From contig CAZWRG010000002.1 of assembly GCA_964636355.1 (NCBI GenBank), positions 32,746 to 96,745 of the forward strand: 64,000 nucleotides of DNA, read 5' to 3'. The notes under the pieces were generated by a model, which worked only from the letters and a program-made list of their open reading frames with translations, was not told the DNA's origin and did not search any database. The position numbers and the translations under genes are program-made. The stretch is from an uncultured Candidatus Saccharibacteria bacterium. Its GTDB lineage: Bacteria; Patescibacteriota; Saccharimonadia; Saccharimonadales; JAGQNK01. Below, piece by piece: positions 3,732-55,006 of the stretch; within the stretch, counting starts at the first letter, position 1, and each line of letters begins with the position of its first letter.

Positions 3732-6284
3732 TTATTTTTGAAAAAAGTTTTTGATTTCTTGTAGGTCGCGTTCTTTCCAGGCAGACTGCCAGGTGAGCAC
3801 TTCAATTCCTTGGTTTATAGCCCGTTCAAAAGCTGGTGTCTTTTTGGGTAGGAAAAAATCTTTAAACTTAACCAGGAAGTCCCGGTTGCTGTAAGCGTTG
3901 GCGGCAAACATTGGGAATCTATAAAAGCTAAGGTCGTCGCCCAAGTTTTCTTCCAGCCAATCCCAATGTTTTTTAATCCATTCCCAGGTTGCGTCGCGTG
4001 CAAAACGGTTTGAGAAACTATACGCTACCCAATATGACACGTCTTGCAACCTAACAGAATCGGAATTGATGAGCTTAAGAGCTCTTTTGATGAGCTCCGG
4101 CTGCTTGAAGTTGGTTAATGCGGCGGCAATAGTGACCCGTTCTTCGCTGGAACTGCTGGCTTCATGAAGCTCAAAAAGTTTATCAAAAGTCGTTTTATCG
4201 CCATGACGAGCCACGCTGGTGTAAATAATGCTTTTAACGTCAGGAGAAATATCCTCAGGTTTGGTCATCGAATTAAATCTATGATGGCACTGCTTGATTG
4301 TTTCAGGGTGATCAGCGCCGGCTGCCAGCCCAAGAATTGTCGGCCTGAGTAGTCTCTGGAAATGGGTTTCATCGTCTTTCGGCTCCCAGCCTAAAATCTC
4401 TAATTGCTTGGCAACTAAGCGGTGGATGTAGGGCTTCATTGATTCTCTTAGCGATTCATCGTCCATCGCTGATCGAGTGGCGGTTATGCCGCTCGCCATG
4501 ACATCCCAAACAGCGTTATCGGATTCTTCTTTGAAGTATTCCAGGAACTTAAAAGCTTCTACAGTTTGGCTCTTGCCAGCTTTCGCTGTTTCAAAAACGT
4601 CACTTAAAATGCCTAGCCTATCTAGTGGCGAAAGTTCACCTTTATCAATTAGCTGACCTAGTCGCGCTAGATGCTCCCGGTCATAAGTCACCCTGTAAAA
4701 ACCGCTTTGTCCGCGGTTAAGTTTGAAATTAGAATTATCCTTAAGAGCGAAGGTTTTAGACTCAGTACTGAGCAGTTCTGGAATGTCTGAATTATTGGCT
4801 AGTAAAGCGATTGGCCAGGTGTCTGATGAGGTTTTTTGAGTTTCTGGATTAATGAAAAACCGTTGCTGTTTGAGTTCAACAGAGCCTGGGTTTAGCTTTG
4901 CTTCGACTATCGGGAAACCGGACTGAGAAGTCCATTTGTGCATGAAATCCTTAACTGGTTTGCCAGATACTTCCTCTAGAGCTTTCCAAAGATCAACCGT
5001 GTCGGTATTGCCGTATTCGTGTTTTTTCAGATAATGACGCAAACCATCACGGAAAGTTTCAGCGCCCAAATAATCATTTAACATATGAATCGCGCTGGCG
5101 CCTTTGCTGTAACTGATGGTGTCAAAAATTGACCTAATTTCATCGGGGTGATTAATTGGCACTTCAATCGGGTGAGTGTGCTCCAAAGCATCAAGTTTAA
5201 AGGCCCGATGCTGTTCGTCGACGGCAAATTGTGTCCACATTTGCCACTCCGGGAAAATATGATCAACCGCCAGGTATTCAATCCAGCTGGCAAAACCTTC
5301 ATTTAGCCAGAGATCGGTCCACCAGCGCATGGTCACTAAGTTTCCAAACCACTGATGAGCTAATTCATGAGCTACCACCATGGCTACATATTGCTTGGTT
5401 GAAACGCTGGTTTTTTTAGGATCAACCAGCATAGTGTGTTCGCGGTAGGTGACCAGACCCCAGTTTTCCATGGCGCCTGACGCAAAATCTGGCAGAGCCA
5501 CCATGTCCAGTTTAGGCAGCGGATATTTGATATCGAAATATTGATTGTAAAATTCCAGGCATTTAACGGCGACGTCCAGGGCAAAATCGGTGTAGTCAAC
5601 GTTGTCAGGCGTGGCGTAAGTGCGAACCGTCACGCCATCTTTGGTAACAGCTTCTTTATAAGACATATTGCCGTAAACAAAAGCCAGTAAATAAGTGCTC
5701 ATCTTTGGGGTGGTTTCAAAAGAGGTGGTCACGAAATCGCCTTCGACAGCTTCTTTTTTAACAGGTGTATTGGCAATTACTTTTTCGCCGTTTGGAGTTG
5801 TAAGCGTCAGGTCAAAAGTTGCCTTGGCCTGTGGCTCATCAATGCAAGGGAAAACTTCTCTGGCGTGATGACTTTCAAACTGGGTGGCGATCAATTGTTG
5901 TTTTTTGCCAGCGTGCTCGAAAAAACAGGGGTAAATGCCATTCATCGCTCGAGTAATTTTACCCTTAAATTTGAGCTTGATGGTGTATTTGCCGGGGTAT
6001 AAAACCTCCGAGGTGTGGAGTCTTACTTCATCAGAGCTTCTGTGGTGGTTTATGCGGCTGACTTTAATTGTAAGCTCGCCGGATTTATCGTGTTTTATTA
6101 TTTCGGCATCGGTAATTTTTAAATCTTTTTGGTGGAGGGTGATTCTTTGGCTGGGACGTGAGGTCTTTTTGCCGCTCAGCGTTAAGGAGCCGCTAAAATC
6201 CTTATGTTCGCGCCGTGGTTTTAGGTGCAGATCATAATGTTCTGGTTGATAGTCAGTGTATAAATGCTTTAAATTTTTCCCCAT
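3732..6284 (-). CDS. pepN: M1-family aminopeptidase N
   Basis: GAMENWGL exopeptidase motif and HELAHQWFGNLVT..x..WLNEGFA zinc site; 850 aa. Confidence 0.9.
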   Translation of the reverse strand: MGKNLKHLYTDYQPEHYDLHLKPRREHKDFSGSLTLSGKKTSRPSQRITLHQKDLKITDAEIIKHDKSGELTIKVSRINHHRSSDEVRLHTSEVLYPGKYTIKLKFKGKITRAMNGIYPCFFEHAGKKQQLIATQFESHHAREVFPCIDEPQAKATFDLTLTTPNGEKVIANTPVKKEAVEGDFVTTSFETTPKMSTYLLAFVYGNMSYKEAVTKDGVTVRTYATPDNVDYTDFALDVAVKCLEFYNQYFDIKYPLPKLDMVALPDFASGAMENWGLVTYREHTMLVDPKKTSVSTKQYVAMVVAHELAHQWFGNLVTMRWWTDLWLNEGFASWIEYLAVDHIFPEWQMWTQFAVDEQHRAFKLDALEHTHPIEVPINHPDEIRSIFDTISYSKGASAIHMLNDYLGAETFRDGLRHYLKKHEYGNTDTVDLWKALEEVSGKPVKDFMHKWTSQSGFPIVEAKLNPGSVELKQQRFFINPETQKTSSDTWPIALLANNSDIPELLSTESKTFALKDNSNFKLNRGQSGFYRVTYDREHLARLGQLIDKGELSPLDRLGILSDVFETAKAGKSQTVEAFKFLEYFKEESDNAVWDVMASGITATRSAMDDESLRESMKPYIHRLVAKQLEILGWEPKDDETHFQRLLRPTILGLAAGADHPETIKQCHHRFNSMTKPEDISPDVKSIIYTSVARHGDKTTFDKLFELHEASSSSEERVTIAAALTNFKQPELIKRALKLINSDSVRLQDVSYWVAYSFSNRFARDATWEWIKKHWDWLEENLGDDLSFYRFPMFAANAYSNRDFLVKFKDFFLPKKTPAFERAINQGIEVLTWQSAWKERDLQEIKNFFQK

Positions 6285-23124: not shown

Positions 23125-23171
23125 AATAGTTTTTGTTTCAATAACCTGAAGCAACTGTTTAACAATCATAT

Positions 23172-23205
23172 GCGCGAGTGGTGAAATTGGTAGACACGCA
23201 TGCTT
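23172..23205 (+). pseudogene. tRNA-Leu-like 5' half fragment (acceptor + D arm + 5' anticodon stem only)
   Basis: gcgcgagtggtgaaattggtagacacgcatgctt closely parallels 23314-23347 of the intact tRNA-Leu (tggtgRaattggtagacacgcatgc). No matching anticodon stem, T arm or acceptor 3' strand follows. Confidence 0.45.
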
Positions 23206-23313: not shown

Positions 23314-23398
23314 GCCGGAATGGTGGAATTGGTAGACACGCATGCCTTAGGAGCATGTGCCGCAAGGCGTGGAGGTTCAAGTCCTCTTTCCGGCACCA
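23314..23398 (+). tRNA. tRNA-Leu (anticodon UAG), CCA encoded
   Basis: Acceptor gccggaa/ttccggc, D loop aattggtaga, anticodon stem catgc/gcatg with loop cttagga, long variable arm, T arm ggagg-ttcaagt-cctct, then A-CCA. Confidence 0.9.
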
Positions 23399-23440: not shown

Positions 23441-23797
23441 ATGAAGGATTTGGCACCACAGCTTACTCGCCAACGTCTACTTATTGAAGCTAAGTATGAC
23501 CGTGAGCTGAATCAAGCAGACATTAAGTCTTTTCTATTAGGCGTGGCTGAAAAACTAAATCTACGAATCTATGGTGACCCAATCATTCATTCGCCAAGCG
23601 GTGAAGGAAAAGATGAAAATCAAGGCTTTGATGCATTCGTACCTTTGATTGACTCAGGTATTTCATTATACGTTTGGACTAACGCAAAATTTCTGTCAGC
23701 TGTACTTTATACTTGTAAAGAGTTTTCTGTTGCTGATGCAGTTGAGTTTACAAAAAAATTCTTCAATACCTCAGAATTGGAACAACTAGAATTTTAG
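23441..23797 (+). CDS. small S-adenosylmethionine decarboxylase (SpeH/SpeD class 1)-like protein, divergent
   Basis: GFDAFVPLIDSGISLYVWTNAKFLSAVLYTCKE aligns by eye to the [33 protein letters not shown] core. The ES-H processing site reads DS-G, and the downstream His is Tyr. Confidence 0.5.
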   Translation: MKDLAPQLTRQRLLIEAKYDRELNQADIKSFLLGVAEKLNLRIYGDPIIHSPSGEGKDENQGFDAFVPLIDSGISLYVWTNAKFLSAVLYTCKEFSVADAVEFTKKFFNTSELEQLEF

Positions 23798-23963: not shown

Positions 23964-24003
23964 CTTAGGAGCATGTGCCGCAAGGCGTGGAGGTTCAAGT
24001 CCT
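23964..24003 (+). repeat. 40-nt exact direct repeat of the 3' part of tRNA-Leu (anticodon loop to T arm)
   Basis: cttaggagcatgtgccgcaaggcgtggaggttcaagtcct is identical to 23346-23385. No complementary 5' half lies upstream, so it is not a tRNA gene. Confidence 0.9.
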
Positions 24004-37799: not shown

Positions 37800-38057
37800 A
37801 TGGGTGATTTCTTATTTGAAGCAAAGCGTTGCCCAGCAACCGGGGAGCCTTGTCAGATATTAGAGGATGAAATTACTGGCTCATCTTTTGAAGTCAATCT
37901 TCGCTTTACTCTCGGTACAGCATGCAGGGAAGGAATGCGTGTAGCAAAAATGACTCAAACAGAACAGATTGAGTGTGGGCTGGAGTATGGTGCGCAGCTA
38001 GAAGCGGAACGCGCATCACGTGCAGCTGCAAAAGAAGCAGGAGTCTACTATGCCTAG
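37800..38057 (+). CDS. 85-aa 4-Cys small protein inserted between rpsL and rpsG
   Basis: ATG lies 2 nt after the rpsL stop, with SD aaggaggg upstream. The stop overlaps the rpsG start by 8 nt. Cys residues at 11, 18, 42 and 59 (CPATGEPC...). Confidence 0.55.
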   Translation: MGDFLFEAKRCPATGEPCQILEDEITGSSFEVNLRFTLGTACREGMRVAKMTQTEQIECGLEYGAQLEAERASRAAAKEAGVYYA

Positions 38058-38529: not shown

Positions 38530-38802
38530 ATGTCTCCTGTATCAGGTGTGCCAGCTAGCTGCCAAGATAGATGTCCTCTGGAAGCCCTTCCCGAGAATCT
38601 GATCGTCGATTACCCATTTACAAAAAGATGTAATGGTCCGGTAATGGTAACGGATACGCCTGTTGATAATGAATTTGACATTGAAAATAGCGGCTACGTA
38701 GAAAGGGTTACACAGGATTCTAGAAAAATAGGAGCCAGAGCGTGTACGAACAATGGAGTTGCAATTTATTTAGATAAAATAGCGTCTGGAGAAGGAAAGT
38801 AA
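38530..38802 (+). CDS. 90-aa 4-Cys small protein inserted between rpsG and fusA
   Basis: ATG lies 3 nt after the rpsG stop. The stop overlaps the fusA start (TAATG). Cys residues at 11, 15, 34 and 72 (CQDRC...). Confidence 0.55.
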
Positions 38803-41055: not shown

Positions 41056-42240
41056 ATGGCAGATACATTTGACAGAAGCAAGCCGCACGTTAATGTCGGA
41101 ACCATGGGTCACGTTGACCACGGTAAGACTACTTTGACTGCTGCTATCACGACTGTACTTGCAAAGAAACTTCCAAGTGCAGTAAACAAAAAAGTTGACT
41201 ACGATCAGATCGACAACGCTCCAGAAGAGAAAGCTCGTGGTATCACGATTGCTACTTCTCACAACGAATACGAATCAGAAAAGCGCCATTATGCGCACGT
41301 TGACATGCCAGGTCACGCTGACTACGTTAAGAACATGATTACCGGTGCCGCTCAGGTTGACGGTGCAATCTTGGTTGTTAGCGCAGCTGACGGTCCTATG
41401 CCGCAGACACGTGAGCACGTTTTGCTTGCTAAGCAGGTTGGTGTGCCAAAAATTCTAGTATTTATGAACAAAATGGATCTTGCTGATCCAGAGCTTGTTG
41501 AGCTGGTTGAGATGGACATTCGTGAACTACTCGCAAAGAATGGTTTTGACGAAGACGCTCCAATCATCAAGGGCTCAGCTGTTAAGGCTCTTGAAGGCGA
41601 CGCAGCCAACGAAGACGCTATCATGGAGCTGGTTAAAGCTATGGACGATTACGTTCCAGAGCCAGTTCGTGACCTAGACAAGCCATTCTTGATGCCAATC
41701 GAAGACGTTTTCTCAATTAAAGGCCGTGGTACTGTGGCCACTGGTCGTATCGAGCAAGGTGTTGTTAACCTTAACGATGAAGTAGAAATCGTTGGTATCC
41801 GTGACACTAAGAAAACTGTTGTAACTGGTGTTGAAATGTTCAAGAAAATGCTTGATCGTGGCCAGGCTGGTGACAACGTAGGTATCTTGCTGCGTGGTAT
41901 CGAGCGCGACGACATCGAACGTGGTCAAGTGCTTTGTAAGCCAGGTTCTGTTACCCCGCACACCGAATTTGACGCTGAAGTTTATATTCTTACCAAAGAA
42001 GAGGGTGGACGACACACTCCATTCTTTAAGGGCTACAAGCCACAGTTCTACATCCGTACAACTGATGTAACTGGTGAAGTCGAACTTCCAGCCGACAAAG
42101 AAATGGTTATGCCAGGCGACACCGTAACCTTTAAGGTTAAGCTGTTGGCTCCAATTGCTATGGAACAAGGTCTAAACTTCGCTATTCGTGAAGGTGGCCG
42201 AACCGTTGGTGCTGGTGTTGTAACCAAAATCAACAAATAA
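41056..42240 (+). CDS. tuf: elongation factor Tu
   Basis: [32 protein letters not shown] and NKMD. Confidence 0.98.
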
Positions 42241-42262
42241 TCGAAGACGATTATTGATTGCC

Positions 42263-42292
42263 GAAGAGCTGCTCCTTTAGGGGCGGCTCTTC
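42263..42292 (+). terminator. stem-loop after tuf
   Basis: gaagagctgc pairs with gcggctcttc, a 10-bp stem with one G-U pair. No clear T-run. Confidence 0.45.
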
Positions 42293-42324
42293 ACTATTCA
42301 TACCTACAGGTATAGAATGTAATT

Positions 42325-42567
42325 ATGCATCCCGGTGTTGTTTTCGAGCTTGAGCGGACAAAACAGCCAATCAAGGCAATTATTAGTCAAGCTCCGGAAG
42401 TTGTGGCAAATCAACACATTATGGTGCTAGTTGGGTTGATCCGGCTTAAACAGCTCAGGGCTGACAATTTTGTAGGCGCCGTAAGAATAAAATACGTCGA
42501 AAATCTTACGCATGATGAAATGAAGTATATCAATGACATGTCGCCACTTAATGACTCCGTTGAATAA
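42325..42567 (+). CDS. hypothetical 80-aa protein between tuf and rpsJ
   Basis: TAGAAT (42313-42318) lies 6 nt before the ATG, with no SD (leaderless geometry). No recognised motif. Confidence 0.4.
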   Translation: MHPGVVFELERTKQPIKAIISQAPEVVANQHIMVLVGLIRLKQLRADNFVGAVRIKYVENLTHDEMKYINDMSPLNDSVE

Positions 42568-42602
42568 CTAACCTAGCGTAACTCTAAAAATTAATTGAAT
42601 GC

Positions 42603-42631
42603 TTGGATAATCTTATTTATTGTTGTATAAT
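42603..42631 (+). promoter_or_regulatory. candidate promoter for rpsJ
   Basis: TTGGAT (42603-42608), N17, TATAAT (42626-42631). A ~160-nt structured leader follows. Confidence 0.55.
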
Positions 42632-42732
42632 CACTCCTGTAAATTAATCGTGGTGACTAAAAGTCGTCTGAATCGTTCTCTATAACGACCAGGAGATGTT
42701 ACACCACAAATTAGAAGATAGGAATTGGCAAA

Positions 42733-42756
42733 TGGAATTTAGAATTCTAAATTCCA
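42733..42756. repeat. 24-nt perfect palindrome in the rpsJ leader
   Basis: tggaatttagaattctaaattcca is its own reverse complement. Imperfect complementarity extends to ~42712-42780. Confidence 0.9.
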
Positions 42757-42798
42757 CAATCCATATTCCAAATTCTAGGACGACTGAAAGGAGTCAAG

Positions 42799-43152
42799 AT
42801 GGCAGAAGCAAAATCAACTAAGAAAGCTGAAGCTCCAGCAGCTAGCGGCAAGCAACGGATTAGAATCCGTCTAAAAGCTTATGATCACAAGGTCATTGAC
42901 CAATCCGCCAAGCAAATTATTGACACGGCGCTTAGAACCGGCGCTACGGTTGCCGGGCCAATTCCGCTGCCCACCAAGAAAACACTTTACACTGTCGTAA
43001 AAAGCCCTCACGTTTATAAAAAGGGTCGCGAACAGTTTGAAATGCGAGTTCACAAGCGCCTAATAGATGTTTTGGAGCCAACTCACAAGACAATCGATAG
43101 CTTGATGAATCTTAGCTTGCCAGCCGGATGCGATGCTGAAATCAAGATGTAG
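42799..43152 (+). CDS. rpsJ: 30S ribosomal protein S10 (N-terminally extended)
   Basis: [26 protein letters not shown]...GPIPLPT...[23 protein letters not shown]. Confidence 0.95.
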
Positions 43153-43172
43153 CCTACGATAAGCTCAAACTT

Positions 43173-43208
43173 AAAATCATCCATCCTTAACTGAATGGAT
43201 GATTTTTG
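43173..43208 (+). terminator. strong intrinsic terminator directly after rpsJ
   Basis: aaaatcatccat (43173-43184) pairs with atggatgatttt (43195-43206), 10-nt loop, T-run 43203-43207. Confidence 0.85.
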
Positions 43209-43225
43209 TTTAACATGTTATATTA

Positions 43226-43552
43226 ATGCTAATGGCTAAAAAACAAACATCTAAGCAAAAGAAAAAATCACCAGCTCGGCTGCGGCTAAGAAGCAGGGTT
43301 CGTAAAGAGCCACAAACTCCTGATGGGATTTATTTCTTAAAGCTGGTCATGTATCTAATTTTAGGCAGTTTATGGGTAAAAATTACTGATGGCAATACAG
43401 TTCAACTGCCAATACCAGTTGGGTTGTTGCTTGGTCTGGTATTTGCGGCTCATGATAAAGTTCAGCTCGATAAAAAAATCGGTTTTGCAATTCTACTGGT
43501 TGCCATGCTGGTCGGTTTTTGGGCCCCTTTTGGAATCTACATTGCTATTTAA
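43226..43552 (+). CDS. small membrane protein with Lys/Arg-rich N-terminus, inserted between rpsJ and rplC
   Basis: Three hydrophobic segments. An extended -10 TGtTATATT (43216-43224) lies 7 nt before the second ATG (43232), which may be the real, leaderless start. Confidence 0.55.
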   Translation: MLMAKKQTSKQKKKSPARLRLRSRVRKEPQTPDGIYFLKLVMYLILGSLWVKITDGNTVQLPIPVGLLLGLVFAAHDKVQLDKKIGFAILLVAMLVGFWAPFGIYIAI

Positions 43553-43575
43553 TCGAATGTAAAATAAACATCATA

Positions 43576-43605
43576 TTGACAGATGAGCTGGTTACATGCT
43601 AATCT
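43576..43605 (+). promoter_or_regulatory. candidate promoter for rplC and downstream S10-operon genes
   Basis: TTGACA (43576-43581), N18, TAATCT (43600-43605). Confidence 0.45.
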
Positions 43606-43630
43606 GTAACGGTCTATTAAATTTTCCAGA

Positions 43631-43705
43631 CTTGGTGAATGAGGTAGGTCTACAATTGTTCCACTATAGAACAGGGGTAGAAACCATCCATCACCAAGAA
43701 TTTTT
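43631..43705 (+). terminator. attenuator-like long-range stem plus T5 in the rplC leader
   Basis: cttggtga (43631-43638) pairs with tcaccaag (43691-43698), enclosing ~50 nt, followed by aattttt (T-run 43701-43705). Confidence 0.35.
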
Positions 43706-43749
43706 GTGTCATGGGACCAAAATTCTGGAGTAAAAAAGTAAAGGTTGCT

Positions 43750-44364
43750 ATGAAAGCATTAATTACAAGAAAGGTTGGCATGACCAGTACCATTGGTGAA
43801 GATGGTGTGGTGGCTGCTGTTACCTTGCTTTCCGCTAGTCCTTGCGTCATTACGCAAGTTAAGACCGATGAGATTGACGGCTACACAGCTGTCCAGATCG
43901 GCACCGAAGAGGCTAAAAACATGGGCAAGACTCAGGCTGGTCACTTCAAAAAATCAAAAGTTCAACCGAAGGTTGTTCGCGAAGTCCGAGTTGCTGAGAT
44001 TGACGAATCTTTGAAGGTCGGCGAATCAATCAATGTTGACACATTTGCTACTGGCGATGTTGTGTCAGTAACTGCCAACAGTAAAGGTAAGGGTTGGGCC
44101 GGCACAATTAAACGGCATAATTTTCACCGTCAGCGCAAAACTCATGGTGGAAAAGGAAATACTCGAAAACCAGGTTCAATTGGTTCAATGTATCCGCAGC
44201 ATATCTTAAAAGGTAAAAAGATGGCCGGCCAAATGGGCGCCGAACAAGTTACCGTCCGAAACCTAAAAGTTGCCTTTGTTGATCCCGAGTTAGGCATTAT
44301 TGGAGTTACCGGTGCTGTGCCTGGGCCTCGAAAAGGTATTGTTTTGATCAAGGAGGCCAAATAA
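43750..44364 (+). CDS. rplC: 50S ribosomal protein L3
   Basis: MKALITRKVGMTS...; start trimmed from 43711. GKGWAGTIKRHNF motif present. Confidence 0.95.
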   Translation: MKALITRKVGMTSTIGEDGVVAAVTLLSASPCVITQVKTDEIDGYTAVQIGTEEAKNMGKTQAGHFKKSKVQPKVVREVRVAEIDESLKVGESINVDTFATGDVVSVTANSKGKGWAGTIKRHNFHRQRKTHGGKGNTRKPGSIGSMYPQHILKGKKMAGQMGAEQVTVRNLKVAFVDPELGIIGVTGAVPGPRKGIVLIKEAK

Positions 44365-44468
44365 TGTTTCGTTTCACTCAACATCAGTCTCCAGTCTCCA
44401 GTCTCCAGTCTCTTGCGACTAGTGACAGGCGACTAGCGACTAAAACCGACCAAGGGGAGGTTTTGTAA
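44364..44468 (+). other. rplC-rplD spacer module: heptamer tandem repeats, also a 34-codon ORF bounded by TAATG at both ends
   Basis: 4x CAGTCTC (44385-44412), then CGACTAG-type heptamers (44416-44443). The ATG at 44364 shares A with the rplC TAA. The TAA at 44466-44468 shares A with the rplD ATG. Translation: MFRFTQHQSPVSSLQSLATSDRRLATKTDQGEVL. Confidence 0.6.
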
Positions 44469-46592: not shown

Positions 46593-46594
46593 TA

Positions 46595-46699
46595 ATGGAA
46601 TTTAGAATATCGAATATGGAATTTAGAATGGGCTTCAATGAAGCTATTCCAACTTCTAACTTCCAGCATCTAACTTCTGCGACTGGAAGGAGCATCTAA
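46595..46699 (+). other. rpsS-rplV spacer module: GGAATTTAGAAT repeats and pyrimidine-rich arm, also a 34-codon ORF ending in TAATG
   Basis: ATGGAATTTAGAAT occurs at 46595-46608 and 46616-46629. Central hairpin gcttc-aat-gaagc lies at 46632-46644. The stop TAA (46697-46699) overlaps the rplV ATG. Translation: MEFRISNMEFRMGFNEAIPTSNFQHLTSATGRSI. Confidence 0.6.
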
Positions 46700-47091
46700 T
46701 GGCAGTTAAAGCAATTGCAAAAGGTGTTCGCATGAGCCCACGCAAAGTTGGTGTGGTTGCTGCATTGGTGCGCGGTAAATCAGTGGCTGACGCATTGACA
46801 ATTTTAGAGCACACTCCGCGACGGGCAGCTGAACCAGTTAAAAAGGTCATTGAGAGTGCTCGGGCTAACGCTGATCACAATCATAACTATAAGGCAGATT
46901 CCTTGGTGATCACCTCAATTAGCGTCACTCCGGGCGCTAGAATCAAGCGATATCGTCCAGCGGCTCATGGCCGAGCATTGCCTTTCATGCGCCGAACATC
47001 GCATATTTTTGTAGCGGTTGATGGCGAACAGCGTGCACCAAAGAAGCCAGCTTCTAAGAAGACCGAAGCCAAGAAAGAGGAGGCCAAGTAA
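46699..47091 (+). CDS. rplV: 50S ribosomal protein L22
   Basis: RMSPRKVGVVAALVRGKSVADALTILEHTP. Confidence 0.95.
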   Translation: MAVKAIAKGVRMSPRKVGVVAALVRGKSVADALTILEHTPRRAAEPVKKVIESARANADHNHNYKADSLVITSISVTPGARIKRYRPAAHGRALPFMRRTSHIFVAVDGEQRAPKKPASKKTEAKKEEAK

Positions 47092-47285
47092 TGGGTTTGT
47101 ATGGAAAAGAATTCTGGTCTGCTGAAATGGATGCAGCTTTGGTAAATGAAAAAGTTAACAGCGCATTTAGTCAGACTTTCAATAAGGATGACAGGGGAGA
47201 GCAGCCCGACAGTCTGGCTCTGCCAGCTGACGGCGCGCTGAGAGGGGATGTTCCCCTCTCAGGAACCGAACGGAGTGAGGTGTAG
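47091..47285 (+). CDS. 64-codon ORF inserted between rplV and rpsC (coding status uncertain; contains an 11-bp hairpin)
   Basis: The ATG overlaps the rplV stop (TAATG), and the stop lies 2 nt before the rpsC ATG. Perfect hairpin ctgagagggga-tgt-tcccctctcag at 47238-47262. Confidence 0.4.
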   Translation: MGLYGKEFWSAEMDAALVNEKVNSAFSQTFNKDDRGEQPDSLALPADGALRGDVPLSGTERSEV

Positions 47286-50819: not shown

Positions 50820-50911
50820 AGGAGTAGAAAGTAAAAAGTAGAAAGTTCATAAAGTAATAACTTTGAAACTTTTAACTTGATAACTTTATACTTTCGACTA
50901 AAGGAGAAAAG
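50820..50911 (+). repeat. rpsH-rplF spacer module: AAAGT-repeat arm / ACTTT-repeat arm imperfect hairpin, non-coding
   Basis: gtagaaagtaaaaagtagaaagttcataaagt ... aactttgaaacttttaacttgataactttatactttc. It ends cgactaaaggag before the ATG at 50912. No start codon and no open frame. Confidence 0.7.
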
Positions 50912-52833: not shown

Positions 52834-52856
52834 ACCGCAATTTTAAAATCACTGAT

Positions 52857-52896
52857 AAAAACTGCTCTTTTATGTAGTATACTAGGAGCAGTTTTT
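52857..52896 (+). terminator. stem-loop with T-run between rplO and secY
   Basis: aaaaactgctc (52857-52867) pairs with gagcagttttt (52886-52896), 18-nt loop. Confidence 0.5.
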
Positions 52897-52927
52897 ATGT
52901 TGAACTTGAGGGGAAAATACTGATTTT

Positions 52928-54894: not shown

Positions 54895-54898
54895 AATT

Positions 54899-55006
54899 AT
54901 GAATAATTTTATCAAGTTAAAAGTTAAAAGTGTAAAGGTAAAAGTAGCTCAACTTTCTACTTTCAACTTTCTACTTTCAACTCAAGTTACCGGAGGTAAC
55001 AAATAA
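54899..55006 (+). other. rpmJ-rpsM spacer module: purine-rich / pyrimidine-rich arms, also a 35-codon ORF ending in TAATG
   Basis: Arm aagttaaaagttaaaagtgtaaaggtaaaagtag faces arm aactttctactttcaactttctactttcaactcaagtt. ATG at 54899; the TAA at 55004-55006 overlaps the rpsM ATG. Translation: MNNFIKLKVKSVKVKVAQLSTFNFLLSTQVTGGNK. Confidence 0.6.

Follow-up and report, generated by a model that had tools for sequence, protein, structure and literature searches.

Intervening sequences (IVSs) of 23S rRNA, known from Coxiella burnetii and Leptospira (PMC4990558), are sporadically distributed and regarded as selfish, and their terminal inverted repeats form a stem of ~25-30 bp. In Coxiella, an AG-rich Shine-Dalgarno sequence (SD) and tandem heptamers GACAGAT, whose number varies between strains, precede an open reading frame (ORF) for S23p, a PF05635-family protein, and the 28-bp terminal stem of the IVS is cut by RNase III (PMC4990558). 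Here, we analyze a 64,000-nt stretch of DNA (referred to as the window) from an uncultured Candidatus Saccharibacteria bacterium (GenBank assembly GCA_964636355.1, contig CAZWRG010000002.1, positions 32,746 to 96,745 of the forward strand), in which a 24-nt perfect palindrome precedes rpsJ. The palindrome is part of a lineage-specific insertion that separates the ribosome-binding site (RBS) of rpsJ from a conserved leader RNA and does not belong to that leader. We propose, with a probability of roughly 60%, that it is the tip of an ORF-less, IVS-like palindromic element that is selfish or neutral.

The closest known kind of element is the PF05635-type rRNA IVS. The Saccharibacteria elements described below have in common with it the terminal inverted repeats, the length of the stem, the sporadic distribution, the AG-rich SD before the heptads and the heptamers in the arm just 5' of the ORF (GACAGAT in Coxiella; GACAAGA, GACATGA or GAGTCAA in Saccharibacteria), and the full-length Saccharibacteria elements carry a PF05635 gene. 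They differ in that they lie in mRNA, in 5' untranslated regions (5'UTRs) or at the junctions of ribosomal-protein and ATP-synthase operons, rather than in 23S helices; the window contains no rRNA. Most Saccharibacteria copies, including all five of the window, lack the PF05635 ORF, the copies at junctions persist as mini-ORFs whose translation is coupled, and the heptads of the window are unlike those around PF05635 genes. Excision of the window copies by RNase III is a prediction by analogy with the Coxiella IVS. The copy at rpsJ resembles an IVS in its stem and in the 7-nt period of its arms, but not in location or in ORF cargo.

Other repeats resemble these elements in part. MITEs (miniature inverted-repeat transposable elements) in operons, such as Correia, ERIC and Chunjie (PMC10969869), and REPINs (PMC3116915) are also ~70-150 nt long, have inverted arms that form a hairpin, occur as lineage-specific families with several copies per genome and lie inside transcription units; some operon MITEs are targets of RNase III or RNase E in mRNA (PMC10969869). 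In contrast to these, the Saccharibacteria elements have no target-site duplication, no cognate transposase or RAYT was seen, their arms are 7-nt periodic, and a genome has several unrelated arm sequences in few copies. The Rickettsia palindromic elements (Ogata et al. 2000), as far as they are summarized in PMC10969869, are likewise selfish palindromes that survive in expressed sequence by means of an open frame, but they are inserted into protein genes in frame and end up in the protein itself, whereas the present elements form a separate mini-cistron with overlapping stop and start codons. The TAACTGA repeats of Beggiatoaceae, Cyanobacteria and Bacteroidetes are intergenic 7-nt tandem units that often lie a few nt 5' of start codons, ribosomal-protein operons included (PMC4679880). 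In these repeats, each genome has a single fixed heptamer in direct arrays, and in BOGUAY only 1 of 170 sets was inverted (PMC4679880); the Saccharibacteria heptads, in contrast, are degenerate, vary from element to element and pair with an inverted array to give a hairpin. In our literature search, no paper was found that connects heptamer repeats or intergenic hairpin repeats with Saccharibacteria or Patescibacteria. The cyanobacterial STRR heptamers, said to have been described by Mazel et al. in 1990, are reportedly intergenic 7-nt tandem repeats as well.

Results

The palindrome lies in an insertion 5' of rpsJ

The palindrome (TGGAATTTAGAATTCTAAATTCCA, 42733-42756) is self-complementary over all of its 24 nt. 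It is the longest perfect palindrome of the window, where the runner-up has 16 nt, and a length of 24 nt was reached in 1 of 200 block shuffles. The original prediction, made from the sequence alone, had pointed out weaker complementary flanks around it; these are real, and the fold reaches 42711-42778 (+ strand). This 68-nt heptad-repeat inverted-repeat insertion, recognized by its fold, by a lag-7 segment (42743-42777) and by comparison of leader lengths, has arms of degenerate RGAATNT units that pair through 24 bp in four helices (6+5+3+10 bp), with the palindrome at the apex. The 126-nt leader region folds at -28.4 kcal/mol (z = -3.6), and none of 200 shuffled sequences was as stable; the potential to form a hairpin is real. 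The palindrome was correctly placed upstream of the rpsJ SD and is followed by CGACTGAAAGGAG, but the distance from its end to AAAGGAG (42787-42793) is 30 nt, not ~25 nt; the rpsJ ATG (42799) lies 42 nt from it. The reported sharing of its 12-mer half-site with the rpsS-rplV spacer was also confirmed: exact copies lie at 46596 and 46617 on the + strand, and an inverted copy with one mismatch lies at 46654. When up to one mismatch was allowed, the 12-mer had 6 matches against 0.67 expected, a number reached in 0 of 100 shuffles.

The relatives that we retrieved via the S10 protein were all Saccharibacteria (TM7) genomes, and their rpsJ leaders show what surrounds the insertion. From an alignment of 55 distinct sequences, a conserved structured leader RNA was located at 42650-42707 (+ strand), outside the element. 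It consists of a stem P1 (GUGGUG/CACCAC), the invariant ACUAAAAGUC and GAUGUUAC and an internal hairpin between them, and compensatory changes were found in 8 of its 16 predicted pairs (4 in P1 and 4 at the base of P2). The distance from the leader motif to the ATG was compared in 111 rpsJ leaders with the motif. It is 17-59 nt in ~91 of them, in which the SD often begins 2-4 nt past P1, and 85-112 nt in 12, with 96 nt in the source species; 8 further motif matches, at least 168 nt from the ATG, lie outside the leader, mostly in tuf coding sequence. One of the 12 long leaders (L093) is a motif match without a hairpin. The remaining 11 comprise three conspecific contigs and eight other species, and those eight species have a 25-30-bp imperfect hairpin at the same leader position, unrelated in sequence to that of the window; no consistent upstream ORF was found in their leader elements. 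Because ~91 relatives pass directly from the leader motif to the SD and the others hold unrelated hairpins, the palindrome belongs to an insertion.

The original prediction had named the loss of the palindrome in close relatives with an otherwise identical leader as an outcome that would speak against it. Such loss is seen between species, whereas strains retain the palindrome: three contigs of the same species, whose overall identity is 97-98%, match it and its flanks at 100%, and the heptad copy number of the leader copy is unchanged in four strains. Covarying structure across orthologues, which can be expected of an autoregulatory leader, is present in 42650-42707 and absent from the species-specific palindrome hairpin. 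The former is a candidate ribosomal-protein autoregulatory leader. It had no match in Rfam 15 even at E<=5 (search of 42240-43720, chance matches only), and a search of the whole window at gathering thresholds returned three tRNAs and nothing else; the RNA beside the palindrome is a new candidate regulatory RNA. A second leader variant, GAGAACUCG..GGUCACUCAUCACUCCG..GAGGUUAC, is found in other Saccharibacteria.

The complete rpsJ 5'UTR folds as three separate modules. A small hairpin of 4 bp (GACU/AGUC; 42782-42795, + strand) surrounds the SD, and relatives have comparable SD hairpins with different stem sequences. Upstream of the leader RNA, a consensus scan found a promoter-like site for the rpsJ transcript with 10 of 12 matches (TGGATA, 16-nt spacer, TATAAT; 42604-42631, + strand), and similar -10 boxes occur in relatives ~20 nt 5' of the leader motif. 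An upstream ORF of 29 codons (42732-42821, + strand) starts with ATGGAATTTAGAAT, like the mini-ORF of the rpsS-rplV spacer, and ends in another frame 22 nt inside rpsJ; since its start falls inside the hairpin, it is probably a relic. An intrinsic terminator or attenuator at the palindrome was considered and rejected: the stem is rich in A and T, GGACGACUGAAAGG comes after it without a U run, and the site is not listed by the terminator scan.

Sister elements have 7-nt periodic, co-adapted arms

Four sister elements lie on the + strand at cistron junctions downstream of rpsJ. The element at rplC-rplD (44365-44467), identified by heptads and fold, has AGTCTCC x4 in its left arm and a GCGACT-type right arm, and its mini-ORF MFRFTQHQSPVSSLQSLATSDRRLATKTDQGEVL (44364-44468) is joined to both neighbors by TAATG. 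The element at rpsS-rplV (46593-46698) belongs to the same GGAATTTAGAAT family as the palindrome, with 32 nt that are 88% complementary to 42744-42775, and its mini-ORF MEFRISNMEFRMGFNEAIPTSNFQHLTSATGRSI (46595-46699) ends with TAATG on the rplV start. AAAGT/ACTTT heptads make up both the element at rpsH-rplF (50820-50911), which is flanked on both sides by a direct repeat of ACTAAAGGAG, and the element at rpmJ-rpsM (54895-55005), which was identified by fold and a lag-7 segment and whose mini-ORF MNNFIKLKVKSVKVKVAQLSTFNFLLSTQVTGGNK (54899-55006) ends with TAATG on the rpsM start. The window therefore holds five copies, leader copy included, with at least three arm types in 64 kb. Apparent flanking repeats (TAATG..TAATG, TAAAATG..TAAAATG and ACTAAAGGAG..ACTAAAGGAG) were tried as target-site duplications and discarded, as they represent generic SD/ATG similarity only.

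The period of 7 nt is specific. When the sequence was scanned for segments with at least 75% self-identity at a given lag, the window yielded 4 segments at lag 7 (42743-42777, 44375-44426, 46595-46630 and 54946-54986) and 0 at lags 5, 6 and 8-12; in 1.27 Mb of related loci, 21 segments were found at lag 7 and 0 at lags 4-6 and 8-11. Nearly all lag-7 segments (31 of 32) lie outside mapped genes. In each element of the window, the heptads of the two arms are complementary to each other. The arms are matched to each other within an element: mean arm pairing was -19.3 kcal/mol for arms of the same element against -10.8 kcal/mol for chimeras between genomes (p = 1.5e-13), and chimeras within a genome were intermediate (-13.7 kcal/mol).

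Elements of different genomes have 5' and 3' modules in common despite their different heptads. The 3' module, CGAC..SD, was found in 17 of 37 elements as compared with 83 of 1933 ordinary starts, and it occurs at native junctions too. Two native junctions of the window, rpoB-rpoC (33263) and rplW-rplB (45449), have CGAC..AAGGAG..TAATG in the same form. The module of the elements may have been copied from native junctions or may have converged on them.

Elements are patchy, clumped and exchanged between strains

We surveyed 163 related loci together with the window and mapped ribosomal-protein genes by tblastn and our own start-codon heuristics. The usual junction in the S10 and spc clusters spans -1 to +2 nt (overlap as TAATG or ATGA). 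No junction has spacers of 60-160 nt in more than a minority of loci: at most 9 loci have them and, between rplC and rplO, 0 to 9.5% of the loci surveyed. In Saccharibacteria, heptad elements occur sporadically in leaders and at cistron junctions of highly expressed operons (str, S10, spc, alpha and atp). For the clumping statistics, elements were scored over whole spacers; a stricter local lag-7 detector had missed known elements. Of the 83 loci counted at species level, 72 are free of heptad elements, where a uniform rate predicts 57.9 (72 was reached in 0 of 5000 simulations), and six species have at least three elements, against 0.53 expected. In a tree of L3, L4 and L2, the element bearers are scattered, mostly beside element-free neighbors.

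Conspecific contigs, found by exact-protein look-ups, show turnover at a much finer scale. In the rpsS-rplV element, one loop base is different. In two conspecific contigs, a GGAATTT-type element takes the place of the rpsH-rplF element, and in one contig the rpmJ-rpsM element is replaced by an AGTCNCN-type copy that is 79% identical to the rplC-rplD element of the window. The swapped tract extends exactly from stop codon to start codon, while the flanking genes have 0-10 differences per 300 nt, and the strains that exchange elements are ~1% apart. Among 181 loci, GGAATTTRGAAT was found in conspecific contigs only. From this distribution, we infer that the elements may be mobile.

Junction copies are constrained to be coupled reading frames

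To describe the junction copies as reading frames, we used 35 non-redundant heptad-type junction spacers, with dinucleotide shuffles as a control. A stop-free frame is present in the sense direction in 34 of the 35, against 8 in the antisense direction and 11.6 expected from the shuffles. The sole exception is the rpsH-rplF copy of the window, which has stops in all frames. In 33 of the 35, an ATG-started ORF runs across the spacer; its stop lies within 3 nt of the start of the next gene in 30 (usually as TAATG), and its ATG overlaps or abuts the upstream stop in 22. The mini-ORF takes over the RBS that serves the downstream gene in element-free genomes, and the element brings a new SD at its 3' end. 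Leader copies, which have no upstream cistron, contain no consistent ORF. Because junction copies are open and leader copies are not consistently so, the constraint is set by the context. Between coupled cistrons, an insert seems to persist only where translation can pass through it. This suggests a rule of tolerance, by which an insert between translationally coupled genes is accepted when it forms a small coupled reading frame of its own.

Full-length relatives contain a PF05635 gene

In two related loci, heptad arms surround an ORF of 121-126 codons between rpsG and fusA (L034, 4954-5396; L041, 5318-5760). The ORF belongs to PF05635, the "23S rRNA intervening-sequence protein" family, with E ~1e-36, and has a weak bAvd-like match under the Pfam cut-off. 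A homologue search gave 1126 proteins at E<=1e-20; source names were available for ~20 of the 120 best homologues, and these were all "four helix bundle protein," several of them from Saccharibacteria. Six more PF05635 contexts (among L169-L181) all lie at rpsG-fusA or atpG-atpD, and all six have inverted heptad arrays on either side; the PF05635 genes examined in Saccharibacteria are thus found between such arrays in 8 of 8 distinct cases. The arm duplexes, computed for three of the six further elements, have energies of -43 to -57 kcal/mol. In these elements, the ATG of the ORF lies inside the left arm, and the right arm is followed by an SD and then by the next gene; CGAC precedes this 3' SD in 4 of the 8. 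Heptads of the same type (ATGAGTC/AAGAGAC) are also found in these or related genomes as short hairpin mini-cistrons that lack an ORF for PF05635, one of them at atpA-atpG. The only cargo seen between such arms is PF05635, which is no known transposase.

Discussion

Based on our findings, we suggest a scheme for the palindrome and its sister elements. At the DNA level, the element would be selfish or neutral, close to harmless for its host, and would be rapidly gained, lost and exchanged. In the transcript, it would fold on itself in vivo, which would leave the leader motif next to the SD hairpin and the control of rpsJ little disturbed. Since RNase III cuts IVS stems and Correia elements (PMC4990558; PMC10969869), the leader hairpin is, by analogy, a plausible substrate of this enzyme; a six-frame translation of the window contains no RNase III signature motif. 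At junctions, only those copies that are mini-cistrons, starting at the upstream stop and stopping on the downstream start, would persist, keeping translation continuous and coupled. The full-length relatives have the PF05635 gene between the same kind of heptad arms, which is the architecture of the classical rRNA IVS. IVS-like anatomy, with heptad-repeat stems and PF05635 cargo, is also found inside protein-coding operons of a lineage of the candidate phyla radiation. The 7-nt periodicity, the insertion-element behavior, the mini-ORF constraint and the link to IVSs had no part in the original prediction.

These observations recall a more general idea, which is speculative and which we hold to be rather unlikely as it stands: IVSs, so far known from rRNA only, could belong to a broader class of mobile hairpin elements aimed at highly expressed units, and in Saccharibacteria such elements could have moved to mRNA operons and been shaped into coupled mini-cistrons. 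The Avd-like PF05635 protein would then act in propagation or maintenance, and the short copies would be non-autonomous derivatives. The elements of Saccharibacteria could be a tractable handle on the spread of IVSs and on the role of PF05635 proteins.

Several observations weigh against our proposal of an IVS-like selfish or neutral element. The junctions show no target-site duplication, the longest string shared by the two flanks measuring 5.2 nt in true pairs as compared with 5.1 nt in mismatched ones (p = 0.35), and neither a transposase nor another mobility gene was identified. The 64-kb window contains no PF05635 gene, and the arms of the GGAATTT-type copies of the window have no sequence homology to the arms of the PF05635 elements; only the architecture and the 3' CGAC..SD module tie the two together. 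The related loci are mainly rpsJ neighborhoods. The invariance of the leader copy in four strains fits a recent insertion or constraint alike. The antisense fold is more stable than the sense fold in 23 of 36 elements (p = 0.03), with 106 G-U pairs in the sense and 125 in the antisense direction. Selection on the sense-strand RNA would be expected to give more G-U pairs and a lower energy in the sense direction; the opposite trend was seen. As sense folds are no better than antisense folds, they give no support to selection for an mRNA hairpin and, hence, no direct support to a role of RNase III.

The elements could instead be RNA hairpins that serve the host, acting in mRNA processing or stability as RNase III sites or protective 5' and 3' stems, or tuning the next cistron, with the copy at rpsJ modulating the control that the leader motif exerts on the SD. 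Their constant sense orientation, their position directly 5' of an SD that often has its own small hairpin, the complementarity of arms kept while the sequence changes and the stability of the leader fold (z = -3.6) would all agree with such a role, and so would the facts that IVS stems are proven RNase III substrates (PMC4990558) and that Correia elements in mRNA are cut by RNase III (PMC10969869). We nevertheless consider it possible but unlikely, because ~87% of species and the nearest relatives have no element, the same junction holds different elements in strains 1% apart, the sense strand has no folding advantage, and the rpsS-rplV spacer folds no better than shuffled sequences (z = -0.9). 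Ribosomes would, moreover, keep the junction copies melted, since these are open frames. Of the two interpretations offered in the original prediction, the RNA hairpin is therefore plausible as far as folding potential is concerned, and a regulatory role of it would be hypothetical. The other, an operator in the DNA at which a dimeric regulator of ribosomal genes would bind GGAATTTAGAA dyads, could account for the perfect dyad symmetry and for the recurrence of half-sites within the window only beside ribosomal-protein genes. It nevertheless found no support, and we regard it as hardly credible: the dyad center (42744/5) lies ~105 nt downstream of the predicted transcription start, the other copies are at cistron junctions deep in the operon with no promoter nearby, the sequence is confined to the source species among the 181 loci, and orthologous leaders have no insert or, in eight species, unrelated hairpins. 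The reading-frame constraint on the junction copies also acts on RNA or translation and not on DNA binding. The regulator-site reading is probably wrong, and the annotation of an operator or regulon should not rest on this palindrome.

Expansion of simple sequence repeats (SSRs) in situ, with nothing mobile, is another conceivable origin. Here, the heptads would arise by replication slippage, the inverted arm by snap-back or template switching and the similar copies by gene conversion. A recent snap-back would yield just such a perfect, loop-less 24-nt palindrome, the left arm of the rplC-rplD element has been homogenized to AGTCTCC x4 at the expense of pairing, and the lack of a target-site duplication would need no explanation. 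Heptanucleotide repeats, according to a report that is cited in PMC4679880, are the commonest long SSR class in prokaryotes. In a contig of a giant-virus metagenome-assembled genome from IMG/VR (L182, 6760-7230), a ~450-nt direct array of GGAATTT/AGAATTT/AGATTTC has no inverted arm and was all that a scan of viral contigs for the doubled 12-mer gave; this unrelated SSR shows that the heptad of the palindrome can arise as a plain microsatellite. In-situ expansion, however, leaves unexplained the replacement of whole spacers by another family between strains, the 5' and 3' modules common to genomes with different heptads, the clumping in few genomes and the constant association of heptad arms with PF05635, and we find it quite improbable. 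Still less probable, to the point of being very unlikely, is a series of binding sites for a protein that would recognize single-stranded RNA or DNA in steps of 7 nt, for example with a cold-shock or S1-type domain, as proposed for the Beggiatoaceae TAACTGA repeats (PMC4679880). The strict 7-nt period and the location just 5' of start codons, ribosomal-protein operons included, as in the TAACTGA repeats (PMC4679880), would suit such a protein, but the heptads differ within one genome (GGAATTT, AGTCTCC and AAAGTNN) and between genomes, and the complementary arms would make the sites double-stranded.

Other features of the window

The gene order of the window is rpoB-rpoC-rpsL-rpsG-fusA-tuf-(small ORF)-rpsJ-(small membrane ORF)-rplC...rpsI. 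Between rpsJ and rplC (43153-43710), a terminator-like hairpin (tccatcc..ggatgattttt) comes first after rpsJ. It is followed by an ORF of 108 codons for a predicted membrane protein (43226-43552), conserved in 42 of 80 related loci, and then by a promoter-like site with a ~150-nt leader 5' of rplC. Because this hairpin, the ORF and a new promoter-like site precede rplC, rpsJ may be transcribed separately in this lineage.

Small ORFs of 64-90 codons lie between core translation genes at 37800-38057, 38530-38802, 42325-42567 and 47091-47285 of the window, and at 2027-2296 of a related locus (L164). The junctions concerned in the window are rpsL-rpsG, rpsG-fusA, tuf-rpsJ and rplV-rpsC, several of them with overlapping stop and start codons, and the ORFs had no Pfam match. 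A conspecific strain has an extra ORF of 89 codons at rplB-rpsS, where the window has a 12-nt spacer.

A second family of junction inserts is not built of heptads and has a GC-richer core, GGGAAAAGAGCAGCCAGAGC..CCTGCGCGATGAGAAAAACCGTAGGTTTGTCTC. It was found at 4090-4206 and 5293-5394 of one locus (L098) and in spacers of four others (L016, L014, L140 and L142). A coupled mini-ORF (..REKSSQS..LRDEKNR..) spans the inserts of L098, L016, L014 and L140 but not that of L142. An Rfam search by E-value with the L098 spacers gave chance matches only.

The tRNA-Leu gene (23314-23398) is accompanied by partial copies of itself: a copy of its 5' half (23170-23203) lies 142 nt upstream, and an exact 40-nt copy of its 3' half (23964-24003) lies 618 nt downstream, bracketing an ORF of 118 codons (23441-23797). 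This arrangement resembles a scar left by integration into the tRNA gene. In the rplO-secY spacer (52855-52898), there is a 15-bp perfect stem, ATAAAAACTGCTCTT..AGGAGCAGTTTTTAT, with a T run; it is likely a terminator or attenuator within the cluster and is conserved in the conspecific contig.

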